Below, piece by piece: positions 23,795 to 46,743 of a stretch of 48,853 nucleotides of DNA. Position 1 is the stretch's first letter. Every line of letters begins with the position of its first letter. The notes under the pieces are model-generated. The model had not been told where the DNA came from. It worked only from the letters and a program-made list of their open reading frames with translations, and did no database searches. Source of the stretch: a bacterium (GTDB lineage Bacteria; Patescibacteriota; Patescibacteriia; Patescibacteriales; GWC2-42-12); contig JAURWF010000062.1 in NCBI GenBank assembly GCA_030655095.1, positions 1 to 48,853 on the forward strand, read 5' to 3'. The translations under genes were made by a program, and so were the position numbers.

Positions 23795-24358
23795 ATGCTT
23801 AAAAATTTTTTTGTTTTTGTTTTTGAATTGACAAAAGTTGTTCTTATTTCTTTAGCTATTATTATTCCTATTAGATATTTTTTAATTCAGCCATTTTATG
23901 TCAAAGGAGCTTCTATGGAGCCTAATTTTCATGATAGTGAATATTTAATTATCGATGAAATTAGTTATCGTTTTAATCAGCCAAAGAGAGGTGATATAAT
24001 AGTTTTTAAATATCCACGCAATCCGCAGGAATATTTTATTAAAAGAATTGTTGGTTTACCAAATGAAAAAGTACAAGTAAGAGATGGCGAAATTTATATT
24101 TTTAATAAAGAAAATCCATTAGGCATTAAGATAGATGAACCATATTTAGCTGATGGAGTAAAAACTAACGGATCTGACGAAGAGGTTATTAGTTTAAAAA
24201 ATGATGAATATTATGTTCTTGGCGATAATAGAAATTTTTCCAAAGATTCCCGTAGTTTTGGTCCTGTAAATAAAAGTTTTGTTGTTGGTAGAGTGTTATT
24301 GCGTGGCTGGCCGTTTGATAAAGTGAATTTATTTCCTGTTCAGCAATATAGTTTTTAG
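23795..24358 (+). CDS. lepB: Signal peptidase I
   Basis: N-terminal transmembrane helix, GASMEPNF (catalytic Ser), KRIVGLPNE (catalytic Lys) and GDNRNFSKDSR. Confidence 0.9.
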   Translation: MLKNFFVFVFELTKVVLISLAIIIPIRYFLIQPFYVKGASMEPNFHDSEYLIIDEISYRFNQPKRGDIIVFKYPRNPQEYFIKRIVGLPNEKVQVRDGEIYIFNKENPLGIKIDEPYLADGVKTNGSDEEVISLKNDEYYVLGDNRNFSKDSRSFGPVNKSFVVGRVLLRGWPFDKVNLFPVQQYSF

Positions 24359-24430
24359 TTAAAAGTCTATAAAGTCTATAAAGTCTGTAAAGTCCGTAAA
24401 GTTAAAAGTTAAAAGTTAAAAGTTTATAAA
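24359..24430. repeat. Array B: the same word family in reverse-complement orientation (AAAGTC/AAAGTT units)
   Basis: gttaaaagtc tataaagtc tataaagtc tgtaaagtc cgtaaagt taaaagt taaaagt taaaagt. Its reverse complement mirrors the 3' half of array A. Confidence 0.9.
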
Positions 24431-24445
24431 TTATAAAATTATATT

Positions 24446-25810
24446 ATGCAAAAATTTATTAGAAATAAGGGGAAAATTGAAGAAATTAAGCCTTTTAAGT
24501 CAAAAAATGGTAAGGTTTTTGCTCGTCTTAGAGGAATGAAAGATGTTTTGCCTGATGAATATAGATATTGGAGTTTAATTAGCAAGAAAATAAATGAATT
24601 AACTAAAACTTATGGTTATAAGAGAATAGATACTCCTATTTTAGAAAATGCTGAGTTATATGAACGTTCAACTGGTAAGACTAGCGATATTATTGCTAAA
24701 GAAATGTTTTCTTTTATAGATAAGAATGATGATAAAATAGCTCTTAGGCCAGAAGGTACTCCAGGAATAGTTCGATCTTATGTTGAGCACGGTATGTTTA
24801 ATTTGCCACAGCCTGTTAAATTGTTTTGGCTTGGGCAAGTTTTTCGTCATGATAAGCCACAGGCTGGTCGTTTTCGTCAATTTACTCAAATTGATTTAGA
24901 ATGTATTGGCGAGAAAGGGCCTGTAATTGACGCTCAATTGATTTTGATTGCTTATAATTTTTTTAAAGAACTGCAGATTGATATAATGATACAGATTAAT
25001 AGTATTGGTTGCTCAGAGTGTCGTAAAGCATATATTAATAAATTGGAAAATTATTATAAAGAAAGAGGTAATAGAACTAAATTATGCAATGACTGTAAAA
25101 GAAGATTGGGTAAAAATAGCCTACGTCTTTTAGATTGTAAAGAAGATCAATGTATTGCCATTAGTGCTGATGCGCCACAGATTATTGACTATTTGTGCGA
25201 GGAATGTAAAAATCATTTTGTCAAAGTTTTGGAATATTTGGATGAAGTTGAAGTACCTTATAATTTAAATTCACATTTAGTTAGAGGACTAGATTATTAT
25301 TCTAAAACTGTTTTTGAGATTTGGCCGATTGATGCTGATGATAGTAATGTTGAAGTAAGTCGTCAATTAGCATTGGGTGGAGGTGGGCGTTATGACGGAT
25401 TGGTTGAATATCTAGGAGGTAGACCAGCACCTGCTTGTGGCTTTGGTATAGGTGTAGAAAGGGTTATTTTAAAAATTAAAGAAAAAAATATCCCACTAAA
25501 AGATGATGATCAGGCTGATATATTTGTTGCTCAGCTCGGTGATCAAGCCAGACGAAAAGCTATGATATTATTTGAAGAATTGCGTCGAGCAGGATTACAA
25601 GTTAGACAGGATTTTTCTAAGGATAGTTTAAAAAATCAGTTAGAAGTTGCTAATAAACTTGGAACTAAATATAGTTTAATTTTAGGTCAGAAAGAAATCG
25701 TAGATGGGACAATTTTGATTAGAGATATGGAATCAGGCATTCAGGAAGTTGTTGATTTTAAAAAAATTAGACAAGAAATTACTAAAAGATTAAATAATGA
25801 GATAAAATAA
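24446..25810 (+). CDS. hisS: Histidine--tRNA ligase
   Basis: LRPEGTPG, FRHDKPQAGRFRQFTQ and GGGGRYD class II motifs. A Cys-rich insertion domain is present. Confidence 0.9.
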   Translation: MQKFIRNKGKIEEIKPFKSKNGKVFARLRGMKDVLPDEYRYWSLISKKINELTKTYGYKRIDTPILENAELYERSTGKTSDIIAKEMFSFIDKNDDKIALRPEGTPGIVRSYVEHGMFNLPQPVKLFWLGQVFRHDKPQAGRFRQFTQIDLECIGEKGPVIDAQLILIAYNFFKELQIDIMIQINSIGCSECRKAYINKLENYYKERGNRTKLCNDCKRRLGKNSLRLLDCKEDQCIAISADAPQIIDYLCEECKNHFVKVLEYLDEVEVPYNLNSHLVRGLDYYSKTVFEIWPIDADDSNVEVSRQLALGGGGRYDGLVEYLGGRPAPACGFGIGVERVILKIKEKNIPLKDDDQADIFVAQLGDQARRKAMILFEELRRAGLQVRQDFSKDSLKNQLEVANKLGTKYSLILGQKEIVDGTILIRDMESGIQEVVDFKKIRQEITKRLNNEIK

Positions 25811-25833
25811 TTATAATTTTTCTAGAAAGGTAG

Positions 25834-26079
25834 GTGGGATTTGTGGTAGAATTTAAAAGAAAAAAAGGAGAAAGTTTTGAAAGTTTTTTGCGTAGATTTA
25901 ACAAAAGACTTCAACAAAGCGGTGATTTAAAAGAAGCTCGTCAGTCTCAACATACTCAGCCAAAAATCAATAAGGCTAAGCAAAAAAAACGAGCCTTGGT
26001 TGGTATGCAATTGCATTCAGAAAGAGAATATTTAAAGAAGATCGGTAAATTAAAAGAAGAACCCAAAAAACGTTGGTAA
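25834..26079 (+). CDS. rpsU: 30S ribosomal protein S21
   Basis: ESFESFLRRFNKRLQQSGDLKEAR followed by a basic tail. The start is GTG at 25834 or 25843, so the exact start is uncertain. Confidence 0.7.
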   Translation: MGFVVEFKRKKGESFESFLRRFNKRLQQSGDLKEARQSQHTQPKINKAKQKKRALVGMQLHSEREYLKKIGKLKEEPKKRW

Positions 26080-26109
26080 AATAGGTAATACAAAATATAA
26101 AAAACGTAG

Positions 26110-26138
26110 GAACAGGGCACTGCCCTGTTCTTTTTTTT
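26110..26138 (+). terminator. Rho-independent terminator after rpsU
   Basis: gaacaggg / ccctgttc stem with loop cactg, followed by T8 (26131-26138). It lies between the convergent rpsU and rel genes. Confidence 0.75.
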
Positions 26139-26189
26139 GCACGACCCTGTTTTTCTGCATCGCTCTGTCCCTACATTTTTTATATTTTT

Positions 26190-27656
26190 TTACATTCCTG
26201 GTATATATTTTTTAAGATTGTTTAATAGTGTGCCTTTTAGAGTTTGTTTTATTCTATTTCTTGCTTTGCCTGTTTTGACAAATCTTAGCCAATCGCGACT
26301 GGGGGTTTTGCGTTTTTTTTCAATGATTATTTCTACTAAGTCACCGTTTTTTAACACCTGACTAAGCGGGGCAATTTTATCGTTGATTCTAACGCCTGTT
26401 GCTTTGTTCCCTATATCAGAATGAACAGCATAAGCAAAGTCTATCGGAGTAGCGCCTTCTGGCAAATCAAAAGCGTCTCCTTTTGGAGAGAATACAAAAA
26501 TTCTGTCACAAAATATATCAAATTTAATTTGTTTAATAAAATCATGAGTGTCTTCAGTTTCATGTTGGATTTTTAATATTTCTCTAATCCATCTTGGTTG
26601 TTCTTTTCGCTTTTCTTTGTTATTATTTTTTGTTTTGTAATTCCAATGAGAGGCAATTCCATATTTTGCTTCTTCGTCCATTTCTTTTGTTCTAATTTGA
26701 AATTCTGTTGTTTTTCCATCTATTCCAAAAACAGTAGTTTGTAAACTGCGATATCCATTGGGTTTTGGCACGGCGATATAATCTTTAAAACGGTTAGCTT
26801 TAGGCGTCCATAATGAATGGATAATTCCTAAAACTTTATAACAATCAGCAATAGTTGGAACAACAACACGTAAGGCAAAAACGTCATAGATTTCATCAAA
26901 TTGATAGTTTTTTTGTTGCATTTTTCTATAAATACTAAAAAGATGTTTAAATCGACTGGTAATTTGGAAATCCATTTTTTCTTTTTTAAGGCCGTCGCCT
27001 AAAATATTTTTTATTTGTTGAATATATTGATTATTCTCAATTTTTTTTTCTACTTCATATTTATATTCTAAATTTTTATATTCTTCTGGTTGTAAATATT
27101 TAAAACAAATATCTTCCATTTGCCATTTGAGCCGCCAGATTCCTAAAAGTCCTGCGACAGGAGCATAGATTTCCATAGTTTCTTTTGCGATCCGTATTTG
27201 TTTTTCAGGTGGCAGAGAGTCTAATGTGCGTAAATTATGTAAGCGGTCGGCAAATTTAATTAAAATAACTCGTAAATCATGAGCCATAGCTAAAAACATT
27301 TTGCGTAAACTTTCTCTATATCTTTCTATGCCACGATATTTTATTTTGCTTAATTTTGTTACGCCTTCTACTAGCATAGCAACTTCTTCTCCAAAATTTT
27401 TTGCAATTTCTTCTAATGTGTATTTGGTATCTTCAGGCACATCGTGAAGTAGCCCCGCGATAATTGTATTAAGATCTGTCTTCATTTGTGCTAAGACAAA
27501 CGCGGTGTGTAAACAATGTTGAATATATTGTTCGCCACTTTTTCTAAGTTGATTATTATGAGCTTTTTGAGCAAATTCAAAAGCTAGTTCTATAAGAGAA
27601 GTGTCTTCGTTAGGATTATTTTCTTTAAATTTATTTATTATTTGATTAATAGTCAT
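26190..27656 (-). CDS. rel: RelA/SpoT-homolog (p)ppGpp synthetase/hydrolase, short form (HD + synthetase + TGS, no ACT/RRM tail)
   Basis: LLHDVPEDT (HD), RFKDYIAVPKPNGYRSLQTTV and FQIRTKEMDEEAKYGIASHW (synthetase), and a TGS-like FSPKGDAFDLPEGATPIDFAYAVHSDIG. Confidence 0.85.
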   Translation of the reverse strand: MTINQIINKFKENNPNEDTSLIELAFEFAQKAHNNQLRKSGEQYIQHCLHTAFVLAQMKTDLNTIIAGLLHDVPEDTKYTLEEIAKNFGEEVAMLVEGVTKLSKIKYRGIERYRESLRKMFLAMAHDLRVILIKFADRLHNLRTLDSLPPEKQIRIAKETMEIYAPVAGLLGIWRLKWQMEDICFKYLQPEEYKNLEYKYEVEKKIENNQYIQQIKNILGDGLKKEKMDFQITSRFKHLFSIYRKMQQKNYQFDEIYDVFALRVVVPTIADCYKVLGIIHSLWTPKANRFKDYIAVPKPNGYRSLQTTVFGIDGKTTEFQIRTKEMDEEAKYGIASHWNYKTKNNNKEKRKEQPRWIREILKIQHETEDTHDFIKQIKFDIFCDRIFVFSPKGDAFDLPEGATPIDFAYAVHSDIGNKATGVRINDKIAPLSQVLKNGDLVEIIIEKKRKTPSRDWLRFVKTGKARNRIKQTLKGTLLNNLKKYIPGM

Positions 27657-27770: not shown

Positions 27771-29453
27771 ATGTTTAATAAATTTAGTAAAAAAAATCAT
27801 AAGATAATTATTGCTTTATTGCTTTATTGCTTTATTGCTTTTTTGTTTATTTTGATTACCCCAAATGTTTTAGCAGCAACAATTGATCCTGGACTAGAAC
27901 AGATGACAGCAACGGGTTTGTCTGATCAAGACATAAGAATAACAATCGCAAATATTATTAGGGCTGTTATTGGGTTTTTAGGAATTATTGCTGTTGGATT
28001 AGTTTTGTATGCTGGTTGGCTGTGGATGACTAGCGAGGGAGAGGAAGATAAAGTTGAGAAAGCTAAATTAATTTTGAAAAATGCTTTAATTGGTTTAATT
28101 ATTATTTTATCATCTTTTGCTATTGTATCTTTTATTTTAAATAAATTAATTGAATCAACTGCTGGTGGCGGTGGTAGTGTTGGAGGCGGACCAGGCGGTG
28201 GTGTAAGTGGCGGGATTGCTGCTTTGGGTAGTGGAATTATTGAATTTCATTATCCTGGCAAAGATCAAAAAGCTGTGCCACGAAATACTAATATATCTAT
28301 TACTTTTAAAGAGGCAATTAATCCTGCTGCTATCATAACTAATAATAAAATAAATACTAGTAATATTAAAATTTATAAAACAAAAGACGGCTTAACTGGC
28401 TCAATGGTTACTGATGTTAATGCTAGCAAAAGTGCAGATAATAAAACTTTTATTTTTGACCCTTCTCAATTTTTAGGTAGCTCTGCTGAAAATTTTTGGT
28501 ACACAGTGGCTTTATCAAAAGATATAAAAACAACAAGAGATGTGTTTGCTTTTGGTGTATTGTCGGGGTTGTTTCCTTATAGTTGGAGCTTTGAAGTAAG
28601 TACTATTGTTGACGAAACTCCGCCAAAAATTGAAAGTATTATTCCTCAACCTAGCGCTACTGAGCCTAGAAATGTTGTTATTCAGATTAATTTTGACGAA
28701 GCTATTAATTCGATGTCAGCTAGTGGCGCGACTAAAAAGGGTTTTAATAATATTGTAGTTAGCGCTTCTTCCACCGGCAATGCTAGCAGTTTAGTCGCAG
28801 GTAATTTTTATTTGTCTAACCAATATAGAACAGTTGAATTTCTTACAGAAGATAAATGTGGGGTTAATTCTTGCGGTTTAGATGTTTATTGTTTGCCTGG
28901 CAATAAAGATATATCTGTTTTAGTTAAAGCAGATGATCCTACGACCTCTCTTTACAATGGAATAGTTGATATGTCTGATAATTCTTTAGACGGTAATAAA
29001 GATGGCGTTGTGCAAGGTCCAACAGCAGATAATTATGCTTGGTTATTTAAGACTAGTAATGACATTGATACTTCTCCGCCAGTAATTACTAAAGTAAATC
29101 CAAATATAAATTCTGACGGAGCAGGTTTAAGCGCTACAGTTGAAGCTGAATTTAATAAATTAATGATGGCTAATAGTTTAAATAGCGATAGTCTTAATTT
29201 GGTTGGCACGCCAGTTATAAATTATTGGATTAGCAAGACTGATGATGCAAGCACTAGTAAAACTACTGTTATTTTTAATCACGATCAATTTAATGAGGAT
29301 AGTAGGTATTCTCCAAAAATTACTTCTGCCGTGAAAGACGTTTACCAAAATTGTTATTTTCCATGTTCAGGCGTAAATGAGACTGGTTCAAATGTACAAG
29401 GCGGTCCGTCTTGTTGTAACGGCGTGGCTAATTTAGGAGCTGTTTGCCCGTGA
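27771..29453 (+). CDS. Secreted/membrane-anchored protein: signal peptide, TrbC/VirB2-like (T4SS-pilin-like) two-helix hairpin, Gly linker, Ig-like (SbsA_Ig/Big-type) domains, Cys-rich tail
   Basis: Residues about 50-128 (IANIIRAVIGFLGIIAVGLVLYAGWLWMTSEGEEDKVEKAKLILKNALIGLIIILSSFAI) form the pilin-like hairpin. GGGGSVGGGPGGGVSGG follows. Repeated P-P-x-I-x-x-x-x-P ... F-x-E-x-(I/M) Ig-type starts are present. Confidence 0.7.
   Translation: MFNKFSKKNHKIIIALLLYCFIAFLFILITPNVLAATIDPGLEQMTATGLSDQDIRITIANIIRAVIGFLGIIAVGLVLYAGWLWMTSEGEEDKVEKAKLILKNALIGLIIILSSFAIVSFILNKLIESTAGGGGSVGGGPGGGVSGGIAALGSGIIEFHYPGKDQKAVPRNTNISITFKEAINPAAIITNNKINTSNIKIYKTKDGLTGSMVTDVNASKSADNKTFIFDPSQFLGSSAENFWYTVALSKDIKTTRDVFAFGVLSGLFPYSWSFEVSTIVDETPPKIESIIPQPSATEPRNVVIQINFDEAINSMSASGATKKGFNNIVVSASSTGNASSLVAGNFYLSNQYRTVEFLTEDKCGVNSCGLDVYCLPGNKDISVLVKADDPTTSLYNGIVDMSDNSLDGNKDGVVQGPTADNYAWLFKTSNDIDTSPPVITKVNPNINSDGAGLSATVEAEFNKLMMANSLNSDSLNLVGTPVINYWISKTDDASTSKTTVIFNHDQFNEDSRYSPKITSAVKDVYQNCYFPCSGVNETGSNVQGGPSCCNGVANLGAVCP
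27810..27841 (+). repeat. Perfect tandem repeat (attgcttt) x4 inside the signal-peptide coding region
   Basis: Copies lie at 27810-17, 27818-25, 27826-33 and 27834-41. The unit length of 8 nt is not a multiple of 3. Confidence 0.95.
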
Positions 29454-29538
29454 TTTATTAGTTAATAAGGTATTTAAATGTAGCTTTGATAACGTTGATA
29501 ATAACTTTAGATAAATACAAAAATTTAATTTTTGTTTT

Positions 29539-30378
29539 ATGATTAATGAAATTACAACAAAAATAGCTTTATTTAAAGGAAAAGAAATCAGAAAAACTAT
29601 TTATCAAAATGAATGGTGGTTTTCTGTTTATGATGTTGTAGGCGCATTAACTGATAGTAAAAACTCAAGAGATTATTTTAATAAAGTATTATTGCGCGAC
29701 GAAATTCTTAAATCAACCTATGGACAATTTGTCCATAGGTTGCCATTAATAGCAGATGATGGGAAAATACGCGATCAAGTATGCGCTAATGCTGAAGGAA
29801 TTTTTCGTATAATTCAATCCATTCCATCTCCAAAAGCTGAACTATTTAAGCGTTGGCTGGCAAAAGTTGGCTATGAAAGAATGAAGGAAATTGAAAATCC
29901 TGAACTTGCTACCAAAAGAACAAGAATGTTGTATAAAATTAAAGGTTATAGTGAAGATTGGATAGAAAAGCGAATGCGTGGAATCGTTATTCGAGAGGAA
30001 TTAACAGATGAATGGCAAAAACGAGGAGCTCAAGAGCAAAAAGATTATGAAATTCTTACGGCTGAAATTTCTAAAGCCACTTTTGGAGTTACTCCAAGCG
30101 AGTATAAAAAAATCAAGGGACTTAAACGAGAAAATTTACGTGATCATATGGATGATTTTGAATTAATTTTTAATATGCTCGGAGAACGCGCGACAACAGA
30201 AATTCACAAGACAGAGGATTCAAAAGGTATGAGTAAACTCCAGAAAGATGCTAAAATTGGCGGTGATATTGCTGGCGGAGCAAGAAGAAAATTAGAACAA
30301 CGACTTAGACGTTCTATAGTATCAAAAAAGAATTTTTTAAATAAGCCAGAAAATAAAAAAATATTAAAAAAATATTAA
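29539..30378 (+). CDS. Bro-N domain protein (DinD / phage antirepressor-like)
   Basis: EWWFSVYDVVGALTDSKNSRDY and FRIIQSIPSPKAELFKRWLAKVGYERMKEIENPE are characteristic of Bro-N/DinD-like proteins. Confidence 0.65.
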   Translation: MINEITTKIALFKGKEIRKTIYQNEWWFSVYDVVGALTDSKNSRDYFNKVLLRDEILKSTYGQFVHRLPLIADDGKIRDQVCANAEGIFRIIQSIPSPKAELFKRWLAKVGYERMKEIENPELATKRTRMLYKIKGYSEDWIEKRMRGIVIREELTDEWQKRGAQEQKDYEILTAEISKATFGVTPSEYKKIKGLKRENLRDHMDDFELIFNMLGERATTEIHKTEDSKGMSKLQKDAKIGGDIAGGARRKLEQRLRRSIVSKKNFLNKPENKKILKKY

Positions 30379-30398
30379 TTTAATAACTAACAGAATCT

Positions 30399-32105
30399 AT
30401 GAAAAAAGCAATTTTTTTATTATCGTTGGTGTTAATTTTAAGTGTGGGATTTTTTTCAACAACAACGCAAATTTTTGCTGAAAGTTTATCTAATAAATTA
30501 AAAGGGAAAATATTATTGCAAGTGGAATCAAGAGGCGAGGCTTGGTATGTTTCTCCTGCTGATGGAAAAAGATATAGTATGGGCAAGCCAAAAGATGCTT
30601 TTGATTTAATACGCAAATTAGGAATTGGCATTAGCAATGATAATTTAAAGAAAATCCAAATAGCAGATGAAAATTTAGTTGGTCTTGATAGTGATAACGA
30701 TGGTCTTTCTGATATGGCGGAAGATTCAATCGGGACAGATAAAAATAATAAAGACAGTGACGGAGATGGATATGATGATAAAAAAGAAGTAATAAATGGA
30801 TATAATCCTATCGGAGCTGGTAAAATATTAATTGATAGTAAGCTCGCTAAACAACAATCAGGAAAAATATTATTACAAGTGGAATCAAAAGGCGAGGCTT
30901 GGTATGTAAATCCGAAGAATAATCAAAGAATTTTTTTAGGCAGACCTACTGATGCTTTTAATTTAATGCGCAAATTAGGTTTGGGTATTTCTAATAATGA
31001 TTTAAGTAAAATTGTTATCCAGTCTAATGCGATAATAGTGCATTCAATTGGTATAAAAGAAGCAAAGATACGGGCAGAAAAGTTTATTAATGAAAAGTTA
31101 TTGTCATCTAATGTAACAGCTACTATTAAAAGTATTGTCTTAGAAGGTGGTTTATATAAAATTATTCTAGAAGTAGGGAATAGTGAATATACTTCTTATA
31201 TGACTAGTGATGGTAAAAAATTTTTTCAAGCAGGTACTGATTTAATTAAAGAAAAGCCTATAGAAATAAACGATTTAGATGTTTGTGATAAGATGCAGGA
31301 TCAAAGTAAAAAATATGAATGTTATTATGAAATTGCTATAGATAAACAAGATTCATCTATTTGTGATAAAATACAGAATCAAGATGATAAAGGCGAATGT
31401 TATTCTTATATTGCGGAAGCTAAACAAGATTTAACTATTTGTGATAAAATACAGAATCAAGATGATAAAGATATGTGTTATTATACAATTGTTATTATTA
31501 AACGAGATTTAGCAGGTTGTGGTAAGATACAAAGTCAAATAATTAAAGGAGGATGTTATACTAGCATAGCTGTAGTTGGGCAGGATTGTGATGAAATACA
31601 GAATCAAGATGATAAAGATATGTGTTATATGGCATATTATGGAAAAGATGTTGCTGAAAATAAAGCTAGAGATGCAAAACGTATTAGCGATATTAAACAA
31701 ATACAGACAGGCTTAGAACTATATTATAATGATATGAGTACATATCCAAACGCTACAAAAATTATTATAAAAGATCTCTGTTTGTCTGCAAACAAGGATT
31801 TAATAACAGGTAATGGATTTTATTCTTCTTGTGTTACTGGCGGTATAAAATATATGAGTCAAGTTCCAACAGCGCCATTGCCAGTTGATGGCAGTTGTAC
31901 TGCTGATAATAACCAATATATTTATCTTTCAACTAATGAAGAAGGTACCGTCATTTGTAAAACTGGAACACAACAAGCTCAATGTCAAAATTATATGTTG
32001 CAATTTTGTACAGGCGAATCTAATGGTTTAATTTCTGCAGGCTTGCATTGCGCCACTTCTAGCGGTATTTCAAATAAGGCATGTTCTTTTCCTGTTATTA
32101 AATAA
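30399..32105 (+). CDS. Secreted chimeric repeat protein (2x unknown ~50-aa domain, TSP3-like Ca-binding repeats, 5x C-x-K-I-Q-N-Q-D-D-K-x-x-C-Y repeats, C-terminal type IV pilin-like globular domain)
   Basis: Signal peptide MKKAIFLLSLVLILSVGFF. KILLQVES(R/K)GEAWYV occurs twice. DSDNDGLSD...DSDGDGYDD is present. ARDAKRISDIKQIQTGLELYYND resembles the end of the pilin alpha1 helix, but there is no prepilin leader. Confidence 0.65.
   Translation: MKKAIFLLSLVLILSVGFFSTTTQIFAESLSNKLKGKILLQVESRGEAWYVSPADGKRYSMGKPKDAFDLIRKLGIGISNDNLKKIQIADENLVGLDSDNDGLSDMAEDSIGTDKNNKDSDGDGYDDKKEVINGYNPIGAGKILIDSKLAKQQSGKILLQVESKGEAWYVNPKNNQRIFLGRPTDAFNLMRKLGLGISNNDLSKIVIQSNAIIVHSIGIKEAKIRAEKFINEKLLSSNVTATIKSIVLEGGLYKIILEVGNSEYTSYMTSDGKKFFQAGTDLIKEKPIEINDLDVCDKMQDQSKKYECYYEIAIDKQDSSICDKIQNQDDKGECYSYIAEAKQDLTICDKIQNQDDKDMCYYTIVIIKRDLAGCGKIQSQIIKGGCYTSIAVVGQDCDEIQNQDDKDMCYMAYYGKDVAENKARDAKRISDIKQIQTGLELYYNDMSTYPNATKIIIKDLCLSANKDLITGNGFYSSCVTGGIKYMSQVPTAPLPVDGSCTADNNQYIYLSTNEEGTVICKTGTQQAQCQNYMLQFCTGESNGLISAGLHCATSSGISNKACSFPVIK
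31362..31628 (+). repeat. Near-identical intragenic DNA repeats (31-42 nt) encoding the CDKIQNQDDK modules
   Basis: tgtgat(a/g)aaatacagaatcaagatgataaag starts at 31362, 31440 and 31587. Copies 2 and 3 extend to 42 nt with one mismatch. Confidence 0.9.
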
Positions 32106-32204
32106 ATTTAGAATTTTATGCCGAATATGATATTCGGCAACAGACTCCTATGTTGTACTAGCGCTAGAATGGACAAAAGGGTGATTTCACATTAAACTAA
32201 AATT

Positions 32205-32603
32205 ATGACTAAAATTAATGAGCAAATTAATTATTGGGAAAAATCTGCTGAGCGAAATTTAAAAACTGCTTTAAGTTTATTTAAAACTAAACATTATGAT
32301 GCTTGTCTTTTTTTCTGTCATTTAACTTTAGAAAAGCTATTAAAAGGATTAGTTGTTAAACAAATTAAAAAAGCGGCTCCGTATATTCATGACTTAGAAA
32401 GATTAACTCTCTTAATTAAATTATCATTTACAAAAGATCAAATTGAAAATATAAAAATTATTTCTGAGTTTAGTCTTGCTGGTCGGTATGATGATGAAAA
32501 GTTTGCGTTTTATAAAAAATGCACTAAAAAATATACAGAAAAATATCTCAATATTTCTAAAGAGTTATATTTATGGTTAAAAGAACAATACCAAAAAAAG
32601 TAA
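32205..32603 (+). CDS. HEPN domain protein (toxin of a HEPN/MNT pair)
   Basis: 132-aa helical protein with YWEKSAERNLKTALSLFKTKHYDACLFFCHLTLEKLLKG, typical of HEPN. It overlaps the downstream nucleotidyltransferase gene by 31 nt. Confidence 0.6.
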   Translation: MTKINEQINYWEKSAERNLKTALSLFKTKHYDACLFFCHLTLEKLLKGLVVKQIKKAAPYIHDLERLTLLIKLSFTKDQIENIKIISEFSLAGRYDDEKFAFYKKCTKKYTEKYLNISKELYLWLKEQYQKK

Positions 32604-32905
32604 AAAAAGAAATTAATAAATATATTAAAATCTTAAAGGCTGATAAATTGCCGATTAAGAAAATTATTTTATTCGGTTCTTATGCTAAAGGAGAACAACA
32701 TGAATGGAGTGACATTGATTTATGTATTATTTCTCCTAAATTTAAAGATGCCTTTGAGGCATTGCAGTATCTTTGGTTAAAAAGAAAAATTTTTGATATT
32801 CAATATGTTATTGAGCCAATTGGTTTTAGTCCAAAAGATTTTAAAGATAAATATAGCTCTCTTGTTTATGAAATAAAAACAACAGGAATTGAAATTTTAG
32901 TATAA
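32573..32905 (+). CDS. Minimal nucleotidyltransferase (MNT antitoxin of a HEPN/MNT pair)
   Basis: LFGSYAKGEQHEWSDIDLCII matches the GS-x10-D-x-D nucleotidyltransferase motif. Confidence 0.7.
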   Translation: MVKRTIPKKVKKEINKYIKILKADKLPIKKIILFGSYAKGEQHEWSDIDLCIISPKFKDAFEALQYLWLKRKIFDIQYVIEPIGFSPKDFKDKYSSLVYEIKTTGIEILV

Positions 32906-33015
32906 TTTTAATATTTTTATTTTTGTTCTTTTATCGGGTTTATAATGTGTGTGGACCTAAAATGCGATAAAATAAAAGATTAAAAGTCGCTTTAAGAGTT
33001 TATGAAAAAAAATAA

Positions 33016-36000
33016 ATGAAAAAAATAATTAAAAAAATATTAATTTTCTTTTGTTCGCTGATAGTTATAATGACAATGGCTCATTTTGCTTTGGCTTTGG
33101 ATCTTGGCATACAATATGGTGAAGCTACTGGATTGGGGCAAGAAGATCCTCGTATTATTGCTGCTAATATTATTAGAATCTTTTTTGGGTTTTTAGGAAT
33201 TATCGCTGTAGGTTTGATAATATATGCAGGTTGGTTGTATATGACTGCTGGCGGAGAAGAAGATAAAGTTGAAAAAGCTAAAAAGATTTTAATGGGAGCT
33301 GTTATCGGTATTATTATTTGCTTGGCGTCTTTTGCTATTGCTAGTTTTATTTTAAATAAATTATTAGATGCTACTGGCGCTGGCGGAGGGAGCGTAAATA
33401 CTGGCGGAGGTGGTGGAGGAATTGGCGGTGGCGGAGTAGGAGCGGCTTGTTATGTTGGGGGCACTGCTAGTAATTGCATTATCGCGAGCTCTACTTGTGA
33501 TATAATAGGATTAGTTTGTGATGCCACTACTTGCAAGTGTAAAAGCTCTGGTTTGCCAGGAGTAGACGAGGCTTGTTTAACAGATGCTTTGGACACAGAT
33601 TGTTCAGCTGGCATTTGTGCAACAGGATTGACTTGCAATAGTAGTGATTGTAAATGTAAAGAAACTAATTTGCCAAGTGCAGGTCAAAATTGTGATGCTG
33701 ATACTGGTCTTGCTGGTTGTCAGGCGACTGATTGTTCAAATAATTTAGTTTGTTCGGCAGACAATAGTTGCACTTGCGTCAAAACACCTTTGATTGCTTG
33801 GATAAGTCCTCTTGATGCTTCTAGTACGCCGAACGGGGCACCAGGAAATTTTATTACTATTGGCGGTCAATATTTTGGGACTTCTACTGGACAAGTGATT
33901 TTTCTTGGGGATACTAGCACTTCAACTGATGATAAAATCGCAACTTTTCCTAATCAAGTTAATTCTCAATGTACTAATTTTTGGCAAGACAATCAGATAA
34001 TTGTAGTAGTGCCTGTTGGCGCTACTACAGGTCCGATTAAAGTCCTTGACTCTACTAATCTTTGGGATACAACTGATAATAATCGCGGTCCTGCTATTAA
34101 TGATTTTACAATAAATAATATCAAACGACCTGGTTTGTGTTTAGTTAATCCAAATGTTGGTTCTTTTGATAACCTTATTGCTTTTTATGGGGTTAATCTT
34201 AATGGAATTAATGAAAAAGCTTTTTTTGGTAATAAAACTAACAATATATTGGCTAATGCTAGAGATTGGTCAAGAGTTTTAGTGCCTAATATTCAAGATG
34301 GTAGAACTTCAGTTTTTGCAACGGTTATATCAGGGAATACAAATTCAGCAGGCAGTACTTTACCCGCAGAAGATTCTAATAGTTTAGGATTTACAGTTAA
34401 AAATAATATTCAAGATAATCCATTTATTGATTATCTTACTCCGATAGAAGGACCAAAAGGTCGGTATATTACTATTTATGGGCGTAATTTTAAAAATTTT
34501 GATTCAGGGAAAAGTGTAGTAAAATTTTATTTGCCAACTGATCCAAATACAAAAATTAATGCCGGAGTAGATTTTCCAATACAGTGTCAAGGTAAATATT
34601 GGAATGATACTTATATTACAATTAAGGTTCCACAAGTAGCACCTCCTGGAGATTATAAGGTAATAGTAATTAATGAAAATAGTAGCACTAGCACTCCAGC
34701 AAATTTTAAAATTACAACAGGTAGTCCTAGTCCAGGTCTTTGTTTATTAGATCCATACAATGGTCCTGTCGGTCAATCTATTAATGCTTATGGTGAATAT
34801 TTTGGTGCTAGTCAAGGAGCTAATGGTCGCGCTGTTTTTTATAATAATGCTTCTAGCTCTCCTACTAGTTGGGCTGATCAAGCGATTAAGACTAATGTGC
34901 CTAGCGGAGCGCAAACAGGACCTTTTAAAATAATTAATAATCAAGTTGGCAATGCGTTGCCTTTTAAAGTTGGCGCTTGCGTTGCTAATACCGATTGTTT
35001 AAATAGTAGTACTGAAGAATGTTGTCCCAGCGGTACTTATAATGCAGGAATTTGTAAAACAGAAGGTGAATGTTCTTTAGGCGGGCCACAAAGTTGTACT
35101 TTTGGTTGGACTTTTTCTACTGCATTAGGAACAAGTACTCCTCTAACTTGCGGTGGTTATAGCGCAGCTAGCGCTTGCTCAGCTGTTGGTATGTGTCCTA
35201 ATGCTCGTGGTGAATGCCAAAGTAGAACTAATATTGAGACAGGATATTGCAGTGATAATAAGTGTAATGAAATCGCTAGCTCCAGTTGCGCTAGTCAGTG
35301 CGCTTATGATAAAGTTTTAAACAAATGTAAATTACTAGGTAAAGTTTGCGATGTGAAAGATACGACTTTAGTTGCCGGATTTACTGCTGAATGTCGTAAA
35401 GTAGGAGCTAAAAATATTTGGCAGATTAACACAAAAGACGCTTCTTGTCCGAATGGGGCTTCTTCACCTATTAATGGTTGGTGTTCTGTTGGCGATTTAG
35501 GCTTTCCGATTGAATGCGTCTCGTCTTCATGTCCAGCAGGTCTTACTTGCCAATCAGGGCAATGCGTAATTTCGTCTTCAGGATGTTCAAATGGATCTTT
35601 TTGCGGTATTGGTGGTAAATGTATAAAAGGATATGGGGTTGGGAGAGAAGATAGTGTTTGCGAATGTTGTTGTCGTGTAGCTAATAGCGCTCAAGATTGT
35701 TGCGCTGGTTTGACTTGCAAAGCAGGTGGTTGTGGTGTTGGCGCGCCAGATTATGGTTTATGTACTGGCTGTAAAGTAATAATTAATGGACAGGTTAACC
35801 AATCTTTAAGTGATCAAACTTGTAATTGCACAGGAAAGACTACTAGATATTGCGATTTAACAGATTTAGCTAATCCATCTGGTGTTTGTAAAGATCAAGC
35901 AGTTGCTGGTCAGAATTGTTATGTTGGTGGTGTTGCTGGTGCTTGCACGGCAAGTTCTACTTGCGCTAGTAGTCTTAGTTGTAATCGAGCGACTTGTAAA

Positions 36001-38457
36001 TGTGAAACAATAAATAATCAATGTGCATCTAATCAAACAGTGTGTAGTTCTTCTTGTTGCACCCAGGGTGAAAGTTGTGATGTTAATGGTAATAGTGGGC
36101 GAGGAAAATGTGGTGATACTTTATGTCAAGGAGCTACTTGTGGCGGTAATTGTTGTGTAGGCGCGACTAGTTGTGCTAGCGGAGCTTGTCCATCAGTCGC
36201 TGGTGCAGCTTGTTATGTTGGTGGTGGTGTCGGCGCTTGTAATATTGCAAGCTCTACTTGCGCTAGTAATCTTAGTTGCAATACAACAAATTGTACTTGT
36301 GAGTCATCCATTTCTTTTCCTCAATTTGGTCAAACTTGCGCTAAAAAAGCAACAACTACAGTAACTTGTGATATTGGTGTTTGCACAGGTTTTTCTTGTT
36401 TAAATGCAACTAGCAGTAGCCCTTTAGCACCATCAAGCTTAGTATCGTGTGGCACTTGTTGTTGTGATCCGACTCTTTCTGCGACTAATGATCAATGTAA
36501 AATCGTTAATCCTAAATTATCTTGTTTAAAAAATAAAGGTAATTGTAGTGGAAGCGGTCGCGGACTTTGTTGTGGCTGTGTTAGAGATGATGAATGTGGT
36601 AATTCTTCTACCGCTGGTTGTAGTAATGATACTTGTTGTAGCGCTAGACCTAGAGTCAATGCACTTACAACCCCAACCAATAATGAAACAGGTGTTTGTC
36701 GCAATACTGTGATAGAAGCAACTTTTGATCAGATTATGGATATTACTAGTTTTAATAATAATATGTTTTTAATTGGTGATTATGGTGCTGATTTATGCCC
36801 TACAGGCACTAAATTTTTAGGAGAAAATATTAGCAAAAAAAGTAATAATATTTTTACAAGAGCTATTAAAAGAATTTTAATTTCTTTAGGAAAAATATTA
36901 AAGCCGATTTTAAGTGAAAAAGTATTAGCAGCAATTAATAGTGCTCATACTTATTGCTTAATCAATGGCGCAATTGGTGGTTATAATGGCGTTGCCAGTA
37001 CAACTGTTATTACTTTTGCTTTGCAAAAAGCTCTTGATGCTGAGCGTGAATATTCTGTTATTATTCAAGGTGATGCTTCTACTACAGATAGTGTTAAAGA
37101 AGGAGTTTTAGGTATTTCTGGCGTAAGTATGAAAGGCACTTCTACTGAAACAATTAATGCTAAAACTTTTACTAATTCTAAAATTTGGTCATTTACTACT
37201 AGCAAAAATATTTGTCAGATAGATAGTGTAATTATTGATCCAATTAGTTATTTATTTCAGACTAGCGAGAATAATCCAGCTGATGATGATTCAGCAACTT
37301 CTACATACGACACAATAAATGATAGTGATAAAGTTTATCGCGCCAAGGCTTTAGCTCTTGATGGCCAGGAAATTTTACCTATTAATAATGTTTATAGCTG
37401 GAATTGGGATTGGACTATTGATAATAAGGAAATAGTAGATTTTAAAAATTTAAATAATACCAATCAACAGACTTTAGTTGCTCAAAATAAAAAAGATGGA
37501 AAAACTGTTGTGTATGCTAAAGCTATTATTACTGACGACAAAGTTATTAAACCGTCTACTGTTAATAAATTTAAAATTGGCAAAGCCAATGTTTATGTTT
37601 TAATGTGCGCTAATCCTTGGCCACCTATTAATAACAGTAATACTTGGTTGCCATGGCGTGATACGTCAGGTAATTGTAGTGCAGGTTTAAGCGGAACGGA
37701 TTGTTTTAATAATAATTTTGAATTTTATTATTGTCGTGATGCTGGTCAAGTAGGCACTGCTGATGATTTGCCAGCAATTTTAAAAGACACAACAGTTATT
37801 AGAGGCAATTATGGAGATCCTAATCCTTTGAAAGAATATTATTTTTTACGCGAGGATGTACCATCTATTACCGTCCTTTCAGTTTATGATCAAAGAAATA
37901 GTGGTAAAGTTGTCGCGGTATGGGAAGCTGTTAATGGAGCATCAGGTTATAAATTGTATTATGGTAAAGACAAAGGTCAATATGATAATTCCGTTGATGT
38001 AAATAATGTAGTTCCTGATGTGAATAATAAAATTTCAAGTCCAGTAATAGGTTTAATTAATAATCAGACTTATTATTTTGCTGTTTCAGCTTATTATAAA
38101 TCAACTGGAGCAGAAAGTATTTATTCTAATGAGGTCAGCATAATTCCGACTGACACTTCTGCGCCATCCGTGCCTACTGGTTTAATTGCTTCTTCAACAA
38201 ATCAAAAAGTAGAATTAACTTGGATAAAAGGCAGTGATGATGTTAATTATTATCGAGCTTTCTATGGCACAGCGAGAGGAGTTTATGGAGCTGAATCTGT
38301 TAAAGTTAGTTTAGCTGATAGTTGTTCAGCGACAATGTGCAAACTTATATTTGAGAATTTGGTTAATAATACAAATTATTATTTTGCAATAAAAGCGTTT
38401 GACGAGTATAATAATGGCAGTGTTGTTAGCGTTGAAGTTAGTGCTATGACGCAATAA
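33016..38457 (+). CDS. Giant (1813 aa) pilin-hairpin-anchored, cysteine-rich surface protein with IPT/TIG, Ig-like and two C-terminal FN3 domains
   Basis: A signal peptide is followed by a hairpin paralogous to that of 27771 (nt about 33127-33366). A poly-Gly linker follows. C-Y-V-G-G...C...S-S-T-C...L-x-C...C-x-C modules lie at 33445-33545, 35911-36006 and 36205-36303. IPT-like ITIGGQYFG, ITIYGRNF and INAYGEYFG are present. FN3-like W-x-x-V-x-G-A-S-G-Y-K-L-Y-Y and YYFA motifs lie at the C-terminus. Confidence 0.85.
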   Translation: MKKIIKKILIFFCSLIVIMTMAHFALALDLGIQYGEATGLGQEDPRIIAANIIRIFFGFLGIIAVGLIIYAGWLYMTAGGEEDKVEKAKKILMGAVIGIIICLASFAIASFILNKLLDATGAGGGSVNTGGGGGGIGGGGVGAACYVGGTASNCIIASSTCDIIGLVCDATTCKCKSSGLPGVDEACLTDALDTDCSAGICATGLTCNSSDCKCKETNLPSAGQNCDADTGLAGCQATDCSNNLVCSADNSCTCVKTPLIAWISPLDASSTPNGAPGNFITIGGQYFGTSTGQVIFLGDTSTSTDDKIATFPNQVNSQCTNFWQDNQIIVVVPVGATTGPIKVLDSTNLWDTTDNNRGPAINDFTINNIKRPGLCLVNPNVGSFDNLIAFYGVNLNGINEKAFFGNKTNNILANARDWSRVLVPNIQDGRTSVFATVISGNTNSAGSTLPAEDSNSLGFTVKNNIQDNPFIDYLTPIEGPKGRYITIYGRNFKNFDSGKSVVKFYLPTDPNTKINAGVDFPIQCQGKYWNDTYITIKVPQVAPPGDYKVIVINENSSTSTPANFKITTGSPSPGLCLLDPYNGPVGQSINAYGEYFGASQGANGRAVFYNNASSSPTSWADQAIKTNVPSGAQTGPFKIINNQVGNALPFKVGACVANTDCLNSSTEECCPSGTYNAGICKTEGECSLGGPQSCTFGWTFSTALGTSTPLTCGGYSAASACSAVGMCPNARGECQSRTNIETGYCSDNKCNEIASSSCASQCAYDKVLNKCKLLGKVCDVKDTTLVAGFTAECRKVGAKNIWQINTKDASCPNGASSPINGWCSVGDLGFPIECVSSSCPAGLTCQSGQCVISSSGCSNGSFCGIGGKCIKGYGVGREDSVCECCCRVANSAQDCCAGLTCKAGGCGVGAPDYGLCTGCKVIINGQVNQSLSDQTCNCTGKTTRYCDLTDLANPSGVCKDQAVAGQNCYVGGVAGACTASSTCASSLSCNRATCKCETINNQCASNQTVCSSSCCTQGESCDVNGNSGRGKCGDTLCQGATCGGNCCVGATSCASGACPSVAGAACYVGGGVGACNIASSTCASNLSCNTTNCTCESSISFPQFGQTCAKKATTTVTCDIGVCTGFSCLNATSSSPLAPSSLVSCGTCCCDPTLSATNDQCKIVNPKLSCLKNKGNCSGSGRGLCCGCVRDDECGNSSTAGCSNDTCCSARPRVNALTTPTNNETGVCRNTVIEATFDQIMDITSFNNNMFLIGDYGADLCPTGTKFLGENISKKSNNIFTRAIKRILISLGKILKPILSEKVLAAINSAHTYCLINGAIGGYNGVASTTVITFALQKALDAEREYSVIIQGDASTTDSVKEGVLGISGVSMKGTSTETINAKTFTNSKIWSFTTSKNICQIDSVIIDPISYLFQTSENNPADDDSATSTYDTINDSDKVYRAKALALDGQEILPINNVYSWNWDWTIDNKEIVDFKNLNNTNQQTLVAQNKKDGKTVVYAKAIITDDKVIKPSTVNKFKIGKANVYVLMCANPWPPINNSNTWLPWRDTSGNCSAGLSGTDCFNNNFEFYYCRDAGQVGTADDLPAILKDTTVIRGNYGDPNPLKEYYFLREDVPSITVLSVYDQRNSGKVVAVWEAVNGASGYKLYYGKDKGQYDNSVDVNNVVPDVNNKISSPVIGLINNQTYYFAVSAYYKSTGAESIYSNEVSIIPTDTSAPSVPTGLIASSTNQKVELTWIKGSDDVNYYRAFYGTARGVYGAESVKVSLADSCSATMCKLIFENLVNNTNYYFAIKAFDEYNNGSVVSVEVSAMTQ

Positions 38458-38569: not shown

Positions 38570-39322
38570 ATGTTTGATGAAATTAATGATCAGAATGTTA
38601 ATCAAGCGAATGTTCCTACTCCGGGGATTGGTTCTATGCCAAATTTTAATCAAAGTGTTCCTAAGTCTGCTGAAGATATTTTGGCAGGAGTTGATCAATC
38701 AGAAAAGCCAGCGGTTTTTCAACCTAAAGCGCCAACGCCATCAGTAGGCTATGTTCCAGAAAACGAGGAGTCAAAAACAACAGATTCTAAAAAGTTTTTT
38801 GTTTTAGGTGTTATAATCATTGTTATTATTTTAATTATTGGCGTTGGTTATTTGGGTATTAAATTTTATTTGAATTCTAAAATATCAGACAAAGCTTTGA
38901 ATAATAGCAGTAAAGTTGTTGAGCCTGTAGTTAGTCCTATTCCAGAAAATTCAGATATTATTAAAAATCCGATTGTTGAAGTTGAAACTTCAACAGCAAC
39001 ATCTACGGGCATTAATGGAAATTCAATTATTACAGCTACTACTACAATTATCGCCACAAACACAGATATGATTATTGAATCTACAACAATAGTTGATAGC
39101 GATCAAGATGGTTTAATTGATGAAGAAGAAAGATTATTAGGAACAGATCCAAATTCAAGTGATTCTGATAACGATGGGTTGTCTGATCGTGAGGAAGTAA
39201 AGACTTATAGCACAAATCCGTTAAATGCAGATACTGATAGCGATGGTTATCAAGATGGAGCAGAAGTAAAAAATGGCTATAATCCAAAGGGATCAGGAAA
39301 ACTAGAGGTTAAAAGTTTGTAG
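38570..39322 (+). CDS. Single-pass membrane protein with C-terminal thrombospondin-type-3-like Ca-binding repeats
   Basis: Transmembrane helix FFVLGVIIIVIILIIGVGYLGI. DSDQDGLIDEEE, DSDNDGLSDREE and DTDSDGYQDGAE repeats. The protein ends NGYNPKGSGKLEVKSL. Confidence 0.7.
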   Translation: MFDEINDQNVNQANVPTPGIGSMPNFNQSVPKSAEDILAGVDQSEKPAVFQPKAPTPSVGYVPENEESKTTDSKKFFVLGVIIIVIILIIGVGYLGIKFYLNSKISDKALNNSSKVVEPVVSPIPENSDIIKNPIVEVETSTATSTGINGNSIITATTTIIATNTDMIIESTTIVDSDQDGLIDEEERLLGTDPNSSDSDNDGLSDREEVKTYSTNPLNADTDSDGYQDGAEVKNGYNPKGSGKLEVKSL

Positions 39323-46119: not shown

Positions 46120-46743
46120 ATGCAATATATTGAGTTAAAGGAAAAATTAAACGAATATGTGGTTTTTACTTCGCAAGACATAAATAAGGTTGATGCGTTG
46201 TTTTATCGTTCTCGTTTGAATGATTGGCAAGATAAGGGATATATAAAAAAGATTCGTAGAGGATATTATATGTTTGCTGATCAAAATTTAAATGAAGCTG
46301 TTTTATTTTGTGTTGCTAATAAGATTTATTTACCATCTTATATTTCATTTGAAATGGCTTTATCTAATTATGGGTTAATCCCGGAAAGTGTTTATGGTAT
46401 CACTTCGGCTACCTCAAATAAAACTAATCGCTTTAAAACTGAAATAGGTGAATTTATTTATCATCATCTTAAGCCGGAATTGTTGTTCGGTTATGAGTTG
46501 ATTACGCTCGGCGGAATATCATACAAGATGGCTAATATTGAGAAGACAATTTTAGATTATTTTTATATTAATTCGCATTTAAAGACAGAAGCAGATTTTT
46601 CTGAGTTGAGAATAAACGAAGAAGAATTTAATTCAAAGGTGAATAAGGATAAGTTAATGAAGTATTTAAATTCATTTAATAATAAGAGTTTAGAGCGAAG
46701 AATTAATAAGTTTTTAAAGTATATAAATTATGTTAATGCTTAA
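46120..46743 (+). CDS. AbiEi-like antitoxin, second copy
   Basis: The track starts at TTG 46108, so ATG 46120 (MQYIELKEK) is preferred. DKGYIKKIRRGYYMF is the AbiEi-type helix. It overlaps the AbiEii gene by 14 nt. Confidence 0.6.
   Translation: MQYIELKEKLNEYVVFTSQDINKVDALFYRSRLNDWQDKGYIKKIRRGYYMFADQNLNEAVLFCVANKIYLPSYISFEMALSNYGLIPESVYGITSATSNKTNRFKTEIGEFIYHHLKPELLFGYELITLGGISYKMANIEKTILDYFYINSHLKTEADFSELRINEEEFNSKVNKDKLMKYLNSFNNKSLERRINKFLKYINYVNA

Follow-up and report, generated by a model that had tools for sequence, protein, structure and literature searches.

A conserved pair of Patescibacteria surface proteins that join a T4SS_pilin-type hairpin to very large ectodomains

The contig JAURWF010000062.1 of assembly GCA_030655095.1, a stretch of 48,853 nucleotides that was analysed at its full length and is called the window below, carries two genes whose products we refer to as protein A and protein B, and both open reading frames (ORFs) are present in the sequence at the positions given in Table 1. 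The contig is low in GC (~30%), and its gene content is chromosomal and typical of Patescibacteria, the candidate phyla radiation (CPR). The database names of the deposited proteins are generic ('Ig-like domain-containing protein', with Ig for immunoglobulin, and 'hypothetical protein'), and an orthologue of A in UniRef is named 'SbsA Ig-like domain-containing protein'. When A and B were aligned with each other, only the N-terminal 110 aa matched (59% identity, E 4e-31), with 64% identity over the 95 aa of a hairpin module, and no further alignable region was found beyond these 110 aa. Hydropathy analysis gave exactly three hydrophobic segments per protein, all of them N-terminal, i.e. the h-region of a signal peptide and two transmembrane (TM) helices, TM1 and TM2, and there is no C-terminal hydrophobic segment or TM helix in A or B. 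Neither protein has a C-terminal LPXTG motif, and a prepilin-peptidase motif (G/FTLIE-like, class III signal peptide) is absent from the first 60 residues of both.

The loops between the two helices are charged and 13–14 residues long, TSEGEEDKVEKAK in A and TAGGEEDKVEKAKK (also written TAGGEEDKVEKAK) in B, and a Gly-rich linker lies directly behind TM2 in each protein. The AlphaFold2 (AF2) model of A, built from 45 homologues and with a mean predicted local distance difference test score (pLDDT) of 82.8, shows a leader helix, helices at 55–87 and 92–130, and a disordered stretch at 130–150, followed by confident β-sandwich domains. The original prediction for this DNA had described the two N-termini as roughly two-thirds identical, each with a two-helix hairpin, a short charged loop and a Gly-rich linker behind it, and the alignment, the hydropathy analysis, the loop sequences and the model of A bear this description out.

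Table 1. Positions of the A–B pair, of the modules of both proteins and of the adjoining genes in the window (aa, amino acids)
Feature	Position	Strand	Description
Gene A	27771..29453	+	560 aa; MDO9399745.1 'Ig-like domain-containing protein'; signal peptide, T4SS_pilin hairpin, Gly tether, Ig-like stalk
A signal peptide, aa 1-35	27771..27875	+	Basic n-region, h-region IIIALLLYCFIAFLFILIT, then VLA; cleavage site predicted by the -3/-1 rule
A pilin module, aa 36-126	27876..28148	+	Conserved lead-in GL..QD.RI.IA.IIR; TM1 62-86, loop TSEGEEDKVEKAK, TM2 100-125; Pfam T4SS_pilin aa 58-122
A Gly-rich flexible tether, aa 127-152	28149..28226	+	pLDDT ~31
A ectodomain, aa 153-560	28227..29450	+	Big_5-type Ig-like β-sandwiches, Cys-rich C-terminus
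Insert between A and B	29454..33015	+	3,562 bp: Bro-N 29539-30378, secreted repeat protein 30399-32105, HEPN 32205-32603, nucleotidyltransferase 32573-32905
Gene B	33016..38457	+	1813 aa; MDO9399750.1 'hypothetical protein Q7T79_03655'
B signal peptide, aa 1-27	33016..33096	+	MKKIIKK, h-region, then ALA; cleavage site predicted by the -3/-1 rule
B pilin module, aa 28-119	33097..33372	+	Pfam T4SS_pilin aa 49-112; TM1 ~52-76, loop TAGGEEDKVEKAKK, TM2 ~90-113
B Gly-rich tether, ~aa 120-145	33373..33450	+	Hydropathy analysis
B ectodomain, proximal	33451..36597	+	Cys-rich modules aa 146-255 and 661-1194, on either side of IPT/TIG region aa 256-660
B ectodomain, distal, aa 1195-1813	36598..38454	+	Big_5, second β-sandwich, Trp/Cys motif region aa 1532-1615, two FN3 domains
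Upstream synteny	23795..27656		lepB 23795-24358, hisS 24446-25810, S21-like (rpsU) 25834-26079, relA/spoT 26190-27656 (minus strand); homologues in 48-57 loci
Two single-pass TSP3 (thrombospondin type 3, Ca-binding) repeat membrane proteins	38570-39322, 39358-40362	+	Homologues in 29 and 23 loci, downstream of the pair where checked

Both hairpins exceed the gathering threshold (26.6 bits) that Pfam sets for the family T4SS_pilin (PF18895; T4SS, type IV secretion system), with 28.5 bits for A and 32.4 bits for B when the whole proteins were scanned, and 32.5 and 38.8 bits, respectively, for the isolated modules. Neither matches TrbC/VirB2 (PF04956) at E≤10, so that of the earlier label 'TrbC/VirB2, T4SS_pilin-type' the second half stands and the first does not. 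The nearest stand-alone relatives, P0005 and P0007, reach PF04956 below its threshold (E 0.0048 and 0.034; 17.5 and 14.8 bits versus 27.9), and A and B score 38.4 and 31.1 bits against the NCBIfam model NF045849 (Mbov_0395/MMCAP2_0565 pilin-like conjugal transfer protein), whose curated cut-off is 40. The sole plasmid match of the hairpin is a 151-aa protein of Pontibacillus (Bacillota) annotated as a member of NF045849. hhalign aligned the hairpin profile to it with a probability of 97.1% (E 6e-11, 67 columns), and this alignment spans the whole hairpin including the loop motif Y.G..[WY].TS.G...K...AK. On the plasmid, the gene is followed by a second, weak T4SS_pilin gene and a TrbL/VirB6-like protein (weak, E 2e-4), and the same cluster holds a gene annotated 'VirB4-like conjugal transfer ATPase' and a large peptidoglycan endopeptidase. 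These hidden Markov model (HMM) and profile–profile comparisons indicate that the A/B hairpin is homologous to the pilin-like proteins of monoderm T4SS clusters. With 560 and 1813 aa, and up to 4029 aa in relatives, the proteins are far larger than the VirB2-like pilins characterised to date, all of which are small. Sequence searches of the PDB with A, with B and with the hairpin profile yielded no informative match.

At E≤1e-3 the hairpin profile matched 70,030 cluster representatives, as T4SS_pilin is a large family, and the best 159 of these matches (148 newly returned representatives and 11 earlier matches) were examined. A single N-terminal hairpin is found in 100 of the 159; 70 of these 100 have >300 aa behind the hairpin, with total lengths up to 4029 aa, and 16 stop ≤30 aa after it. 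A stand-alone homologous pilin of 133 aa was also found. The 77 loci analysed come from GTDB species representatives, which do not include the source genome and among which the best match shares 82% identity. A and B lie side by side on the same strand in 67 of them (median gap 18 bp, maximum 615 bp), and the 10 exceptions are mostly cut by contig ends. The first ORF of the pair, A-type, is 531–1047 aa long and has the motif G.LG.G.I.S.YP....VPRNT after the linker, then Big_5 domains; the second, B-type, has 1434–3399 aa where complete. The records from which the loci were taken carry the names Falkowbacteria, Uhrbacteria, Buchananbacteria, Komeilibacteria, Nomurabacteria, Paceibacter and 'Patescibacteria group', and the four pair-bearing genomes found in the table of a CPR census are all classed ABY1. 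The A–B pair is a conserved adjacent gene pair of many Patescibacteria and no peculiarity of this contig.

This distribution also bears on the possibility of an artefact, in which a small pilin gene would have been joined to a surface-protein gene by mis-assembly or read-through, or a generic signal peptide with TM helices would mimic a pilin. Membrane hairpins are compositionally simple and prone to spurious HMM matches, and the closest word-indexed matches to the isolated hairpin have only 65–156 aa. However, several of these short matches stop inside the Gly linker or are flagged as partial, both proteins pass the curated Pfam threshold, and the hhalign match covers the hairpin with its loop motif. 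In addition, the same continuous ORF layout is found in 67 independent assemblies, and the hairpin is present in 116 of 116 retrieved full-length family-A homologues. As the same architecture recurs across assemblies, mis-assembly and gene-calling artefacts are excluded and the fusion of hairpin and ectodomain, as originally predicted, is genuine; we regard an artefact as extremely improbable.

More than one T4SS_pilin hairpin per polypeptide was seen in 59 of the best 159 matches, with 2–17 matched stretches each. Five such proteins (P0012, P0014, P0016, P0018, and P0021) have one N-terminal signal peptide, short linkers, and no internal start or leader, which rules out an origin by read-through from one tandem pilin gene into the next. 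They resemble pilin hairpins joined covalently in series, and we know of no description of T4SS_pilin proteins of this kind.

The hairpin is the best-conserved segment of both proteins. Family-A proteins match the contig protein at a mean identity of 70% over the hairpin, against 53% over the ectodomain, 39% over the linker and 22% over the signal peptide. In family B, all 78 loci could be aligned over the hairpin (53% identity), whereas the ectodomain regions align in 28–60 loci at 32–38%. The two hairpins were then compared within and between 66 genomes (65 loci and the contig under study). The A–B identity within a genome averages 66.8%, compared to 55–57% for A–A, B–B and A–B pairs from different genomes, and the within-genome A–B value is the higher one in 65 of the 66 (Wilcoxon p 2e-12). 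The nearest neighbour of an A hairpin is nevertheless another A in 50 of 66 cases. In our reading, these are two old paralogues whose hairpins vary together within genomes, while each remains an orthologue group of its own. The co-variation could arise from co-evolution of interacting hairpins, from gene conversion between neighbours, or from shared compositional drift; in the contig, the same codon is used at 40 of the 61 residues that are identical between the hairpins of A and B.

Behind the hairpin, the cargo is ~420 aa long in A and ~1670 aa in B, and exceeds 3000 aa in relatives. Pfam finds three Big_5 domains in A (E 2e-21), and TIG (E 6e-14), Big_5 and fn3 in B, the last reaching 26.9 bits (cut-off 25) in a scan of the isolated segment. 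Of 117 Cys residues in B, 115 lie in the ectodomain. These matches and the Cys content agree with the earlier description of the ectodomains as Ig-like, IPT/TIG, Cys-rich, and fibronectin type III (FN3) modules. A Foldseek comparison of the A ectodomain with the PDB gave the S-layer protein SbsC (E 4e-9), Sap, Ig-like domains of Ldt (L,D-transpeptidase), titin, and cadherins, where the matches to SbsC and Sap are to generic Ig-like domains with TM-scores of 0.13–0.17. The model of B aa 1195–1813 (pLDDT 71.5) contains an Ig-like domain, a second β-sandwich, and two FN3 domains, and its Foldseek matches are Ig/FN3 cell-adhesion ectodomains; the Trp/Cys motif region within it is strongly conserved and was modelled with low confidence. 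No enzyme fold was present among the top Foldseek matches of either ectodomain model. The cargo of B-type relatives varies and includes FG-GAP repeats, a ConA-like lectin (Laminin_G_3), Big_7, DUF4215, and TIG, all behind an above-threshold T4SS_pilin hairpin.

The orthologues of A and B in GCA_000997945.1 are KKS35352.1 and KKS35353.1. The latter (L040:9920-17215) bears the NCBI name 'Beta-1,3-glucanase', which is probably wrong, as Pfam gives only T4SS_pilin, TIG, Big_5, and fn3. An enzymatic cargo, considered on account of this name, was rejected, with Pfam and Foldseek finding Ig, TIG, and FN3 modules only.

A and B are best explained as a vertically inherited pair of modular pilin-family surface proteins. 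We favour, with a probability of about 0.5, a pilin-type hairpin that stays in the membrane, presents adhesin-like or coat fibrils, and retains the specific contacts of a pilin. As judged from their sequences, A and B would be exported by the Sec pathway and their long leaders removed by signal peptidase I (LepB), and hydropathy, model and homology show that the mature protein begins with a two-helix hairpin of the T4SS_pilin family. Two spans behind an external N-terminus would place the charged loop in the cytoplasm and the C-terminus again outside, where a disordered Gly-rich tether would lead into a long rod projecting from the cell, built of Ig-like domains in A and of Cys-rich, IPT/TIG, Ig-like, and FN3 modules in B. 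Rather than serving as a passive lipid anchor, the hairpin would make pilin-type specific helix contacts with the partner hairpin, with small pilins, or with a T4SS platform, and such contacts would explain why it is the most conserved segment. The domain types suggest that the function may be to bind a host cell or surface.

Several observations weigh against the resident hairpin. The domain types of the cargo are generic and do not prove adhesion. The strong conservation of hairpin and loop, together with the homology to pilins of T4SS clusters, is no less compatible with a polymerising pilin than with a resident anchor. The net charge of the loop is neutral or acidic in A and B, and the positive-inside rule alone does not fix the topology; the signal-peptide cleavage sites are likewise those predicted by the -3/-1 rule. 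Finally, the within-genome similarity of the A and B hairpins could come in part from shared amino-acid composition or from gene conversion.

In the surroundings of the pair, the conserved order is lepB–hisS–rpsU–relA, A–B, two TSP3 membrane proteins, and ybeY. We clustered the flanking ORFs of the 77 loci de novo within 10 kb, and homologues of the two TSP3 membrane proteins, ybeY, and a diacylglycerol (DAG) kinase were found in 19–37 of the loci, the cluster of the TSP3 proteins covering 37. Lying directly downstream of B, the TSP3 proteins may be candidate partners or members of the same envelope unit. The gene lepB, four genes upstream of the pair, has a homologue in 52 of 77 loci; this may be plain synteny, yet A and B both need leader cleavage. 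No chaperone-like genes were found in this gene context. The rest of the contig holds a polysaccharide synthesis cluster (0–20 kb), dapB upstream, ybeY, DAG kinase, ftsA, and ftsZ downstream, and several toxin–antitoxin genes. A scan for promoters and terminators around both genes gave a signal no better than shuffled sequence.

The two genes of the contig under study are separated by a 3.56-kb stretch that we read as an insertion outside the conserved unit, because its genes (Bro-N, the secreted repeat protein, HEPN, and nucleotidyltransferase) have no homologues in the 77 related loci. The 568-aa secreted protein between A and B, which had been taken as part of the system, therefore belongs to a window-specific insert. 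The HEPN and nucleotidyltransferase ORFs overlap, and the only repeat bounding the insert is a weak AT-rich direct match of 33 nt, at 29511 and 32902. The inserted 568-aa protein has a TSP3 repeat, two modules of ~55 aa that lie 357 nt apart (30490-31012), and five tandem 78-nt (26-aa) repeats with paired Cys (31251-31628).

The position of the pair in the core genome, between relA/hisS/lepB and ybeY/ftsA/ftsZ and conserved across ABY1-type and some Paceibacteria-type genomes, would also suit constitutive envelope or surface-layer components, in which the hairpins tie an Ig-like coat to the membrane, perhaps via lateral hairpin–hairpin association, with a structural role instead of host-specific adhesion. 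The S-layer proteins SbsC and Sap as top structural matches of the A ectodomain, the 'SbsA' name of an orthologue in UniRef, the fair conservation of that ectodomain, and the two conserved Ca-binding membrane proteins adjoining the pair all point in this direction. However, Pfam scans of A and B gave no match to SLH or to any other family of S-layer anchors or lattices, the resemblance in structure is one of generic Ig-like domains at the low TM-scores given above, and B varies between genomes in length and modules in a manner more typical of adhesins under diversifying pressure. We consider a purely structural coat unlikely.

The absence of VirB4, VirB6, and VirD4 genes from the window, as originally stated, was confirmed in that none of these families was found in any contig ORF scanned. 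Likewise, no T4SS component (VirB4, VirB6, or coupling protein) was recognised among the families common to several of the 77 loci, for which the cluster representatives were read, most of them without a Pfam scan. Elsewhere in related genomes such genes are present: four genomes with the A–B pair (GCA_000997945.1, GCA_000995135.1, GCA_001780275.1, and GCA_001778055.1) are listed as VirB4-positive in Table S1 of PMC12102498. In GCA_000997945.1, the same census gives virB4 and trsD at coding sequences (CDS) 209–210 and six small VirB2-like genes at CDS 281–302 (PMC12102498); KKS35352.1 and KKS35353.1 are not among its VirB2 entries, in the part of the census available to us. As most CPR genomes in Table S1 are VirB4-positive, the co-occurrence in four genomes is weak evidence.

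The main alternative, less probable and tentative, is a different fate of the hairpins, in which A and B would be cargo-bearing T4SS pilins: machinery of the VirB4/VirB6 type encoded elsewhere would extract the hairpins from the membrane and they would co-polymerise with small VirB2-like pilins, so that the rods decorate the pilus exterior. Incorporation would probably be of low stoichiometry or at the tip, and the rods would be the missing adhesin of CPR T4SSs. Such a fate agrees with the T4SS_pilin family membership of the hairpin, its homology to the pilin-like protein of a VirB6/VirB4 cluster, and its conserved loop motif. Every conjugative pilus with a solved structure exposes the two termini of its subunits on the outer face and has the charged loop along the lumen (bioRxiv 10.64898/2025.12.18.695078), and a C-terminal cargo on the pilus is for this reason topologically permitted; the flexible Gly tether right behind TM2 is what such a fusion needs, and the tandem poly-hairpin proteins show that hairpins of this type can sit side by side. 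The four VirB4-positive genomes with the pair, one of them with six small VirB2-like genes, and the essentiality of T4SS and pilin array in a cultured Saccharibacterium are also in line with a pilus. The CPR T4SS census detected no PrgB-like adhesins, which leaves the CPR T4SS without a known adhesin. On the other hand, there is no recognisable T4SS gene within 10 kb of the pair in the 77 loci, nor on the contig, compared to a small pilin gene near virB4 in 1135 of 1948 assemblies. Every characterised VirB2-like protein is small, and a cargo of 420 to >3000 aa per subunit would be sterically demanding. Moreover, a T4SS pilus has so far not been observed in CPR, and with VirB4 in most CPR genomes the co-occurrence in four of them discriminates little.

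In its strongest form, the A–B pair would be the first modular pilins of the T4SS (VirB2) type, whose hairpins are drawn into a Patescibacteria T4SS pilus alone, together, or diluted among small pilins, a claim that we hold to be rather doubtful. If this were true, the long Ig/TIG/FN3/lectin adhesins would be borne by the pilus itself, the host-recognition component so far missing for the T4SS, which is essential in a cultured Saccharibacterium, would be identified, and the tandem poly-hairpin proteins would be pre-linked pilus segments.

The original prediction had called the fusion of pilin hairpin and giant cargo an uncharacterised architecture, and in the open-access literature searched we found no description of a T4SS_pilin hairpin fused to large ectodomains or of the conserved A–B pair, the proteins themselves being deposited under generic names. 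The fusion is also undescribed in the CPR T4SS census, the Saccharibacteria transposon-sequencing (Tn-seq) paper, a 2025 T4SS review, and the preprint on Gram-positive VirB2. Small VirB2-like pilins are already known in CPR, and the cargo-bearing form appears to be undescribed. The known CPR proteins are small and stand-alone, frequently occur in arrays of 2–11 genes with ~25% identity within an array, often lie beside virB4, and form an array that is essential in Ca. Southlakia epibionticum ML1 (PMC10633639, PMC12102498, PMC12857230). A and B share with them the Pfam family (PF18895), the phylum, the signal peptide with two-helix hairpin and short charged loop, and the T4SS genes listed for related genomes that have the pair. 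In contrast to them, A and B add an ectodomain of 420–1670 aa (>3000 aa in relatives), form a fixed two-gene unit, have unusually conserved hairpins, and have no T4SS gene recognised nearby in the 77 loci.

Gram-positive plasmid VirB2-like proteins were recently proposed to form pili, in a search limited to 50–150 aa (bioRxiv 10.64898/2025.12.18.695078). With PrgF(B2) and other proteins of this kind, and with the NF045849 family, A and B have in common the monoderm setting, the two TM helices, and a charged, partly acidic loop, whereas A and B are chromosomal, lie outside a T4SS cluster, and fall slightly short of the NF045849 cut-off. Only among type IV pili are pilins with a grafted adhesion module established, e.g. 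PilB of Streptococcus sanguinis (PMC8179133). As in PilB, an adhesion module would be grafted C-terminally onto a polymerisation or membrane module; PilB-type pilins, however, are type 4 filaments with a class III signal peptide and a single N-terminal helix, and both the prepilin motif and that fold are missing from A and B, so we regard the likeness as an analogy of architecture, not homology.

The ABY1 member Patescibacterium danicum has very long adhesin-like proteins with FhaB-type domains, proposed for host adhesion, with no mention of pilin or T4SS (PMC11809585); compared by description only, these are giant FN3-annotated proteins from the same class of Patescibacteria, but are described via their FhaB-type domains. 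Pam pili, reported mainly from Saccharimonadia and Microgenomatia, use donor-strand exchange, chaperone-like proteins, and C-terminal TM anchors, and VirB2 or T4SS is unmentioned for them (bioRxiv 10.64898/2026.03.03.709456). As CPR-specific surface filaments with Ig-like domains and Sec export they resemble A and B, which are set apart, again by description, in having no C-terminal TM helix and no chaperone-like neighbours. A and B also differ from sortase-anchored Gram-positive adhesins, having no C-terminal LPXTG or hydrophobic segment, and from S-layer proteins, having no SLH-type family and matching SbsC and Sap through generic Ig-like domains.

Patescibacteria are thought to live attached to other microbes, and in the one lineage tested their T4SS and its VirB2-like pilins proved essential, but this system still has no adhesin assigned to it. 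The A–B pair provides concrete candidates for host recognition in ABY1 and Paceibacteria-type lineages. A VirB2-type hairpin can carry a very large C-terminal cargo. Surveys so far treated VirB2-like proteins as small, and our data suggest that a class of family members can escape pilin censuses that select by length or by gene neighbourhood.

Two further observations concern other parts of the contig. A family 4 glycosyltransferase (GT4) gene on the minus strand is apparently split (11107-11820 and 10577-10909), one ORF containing the Glyco_transf_4 N-domain and a separate 110-aa ORF only the last 84 columns of Glycos_transf_1, and probably reflects gene disruption or a frameshift. Genes for two AbiEii-family toxins and one Fic/DOC gene are found at 2352-3179, 46730-47506, and 47736-48746, which together with the HEPN/nucleotidyltransferase genes makes several toxin–antitoxin or abortive-infection modules on one 49-kb contig.

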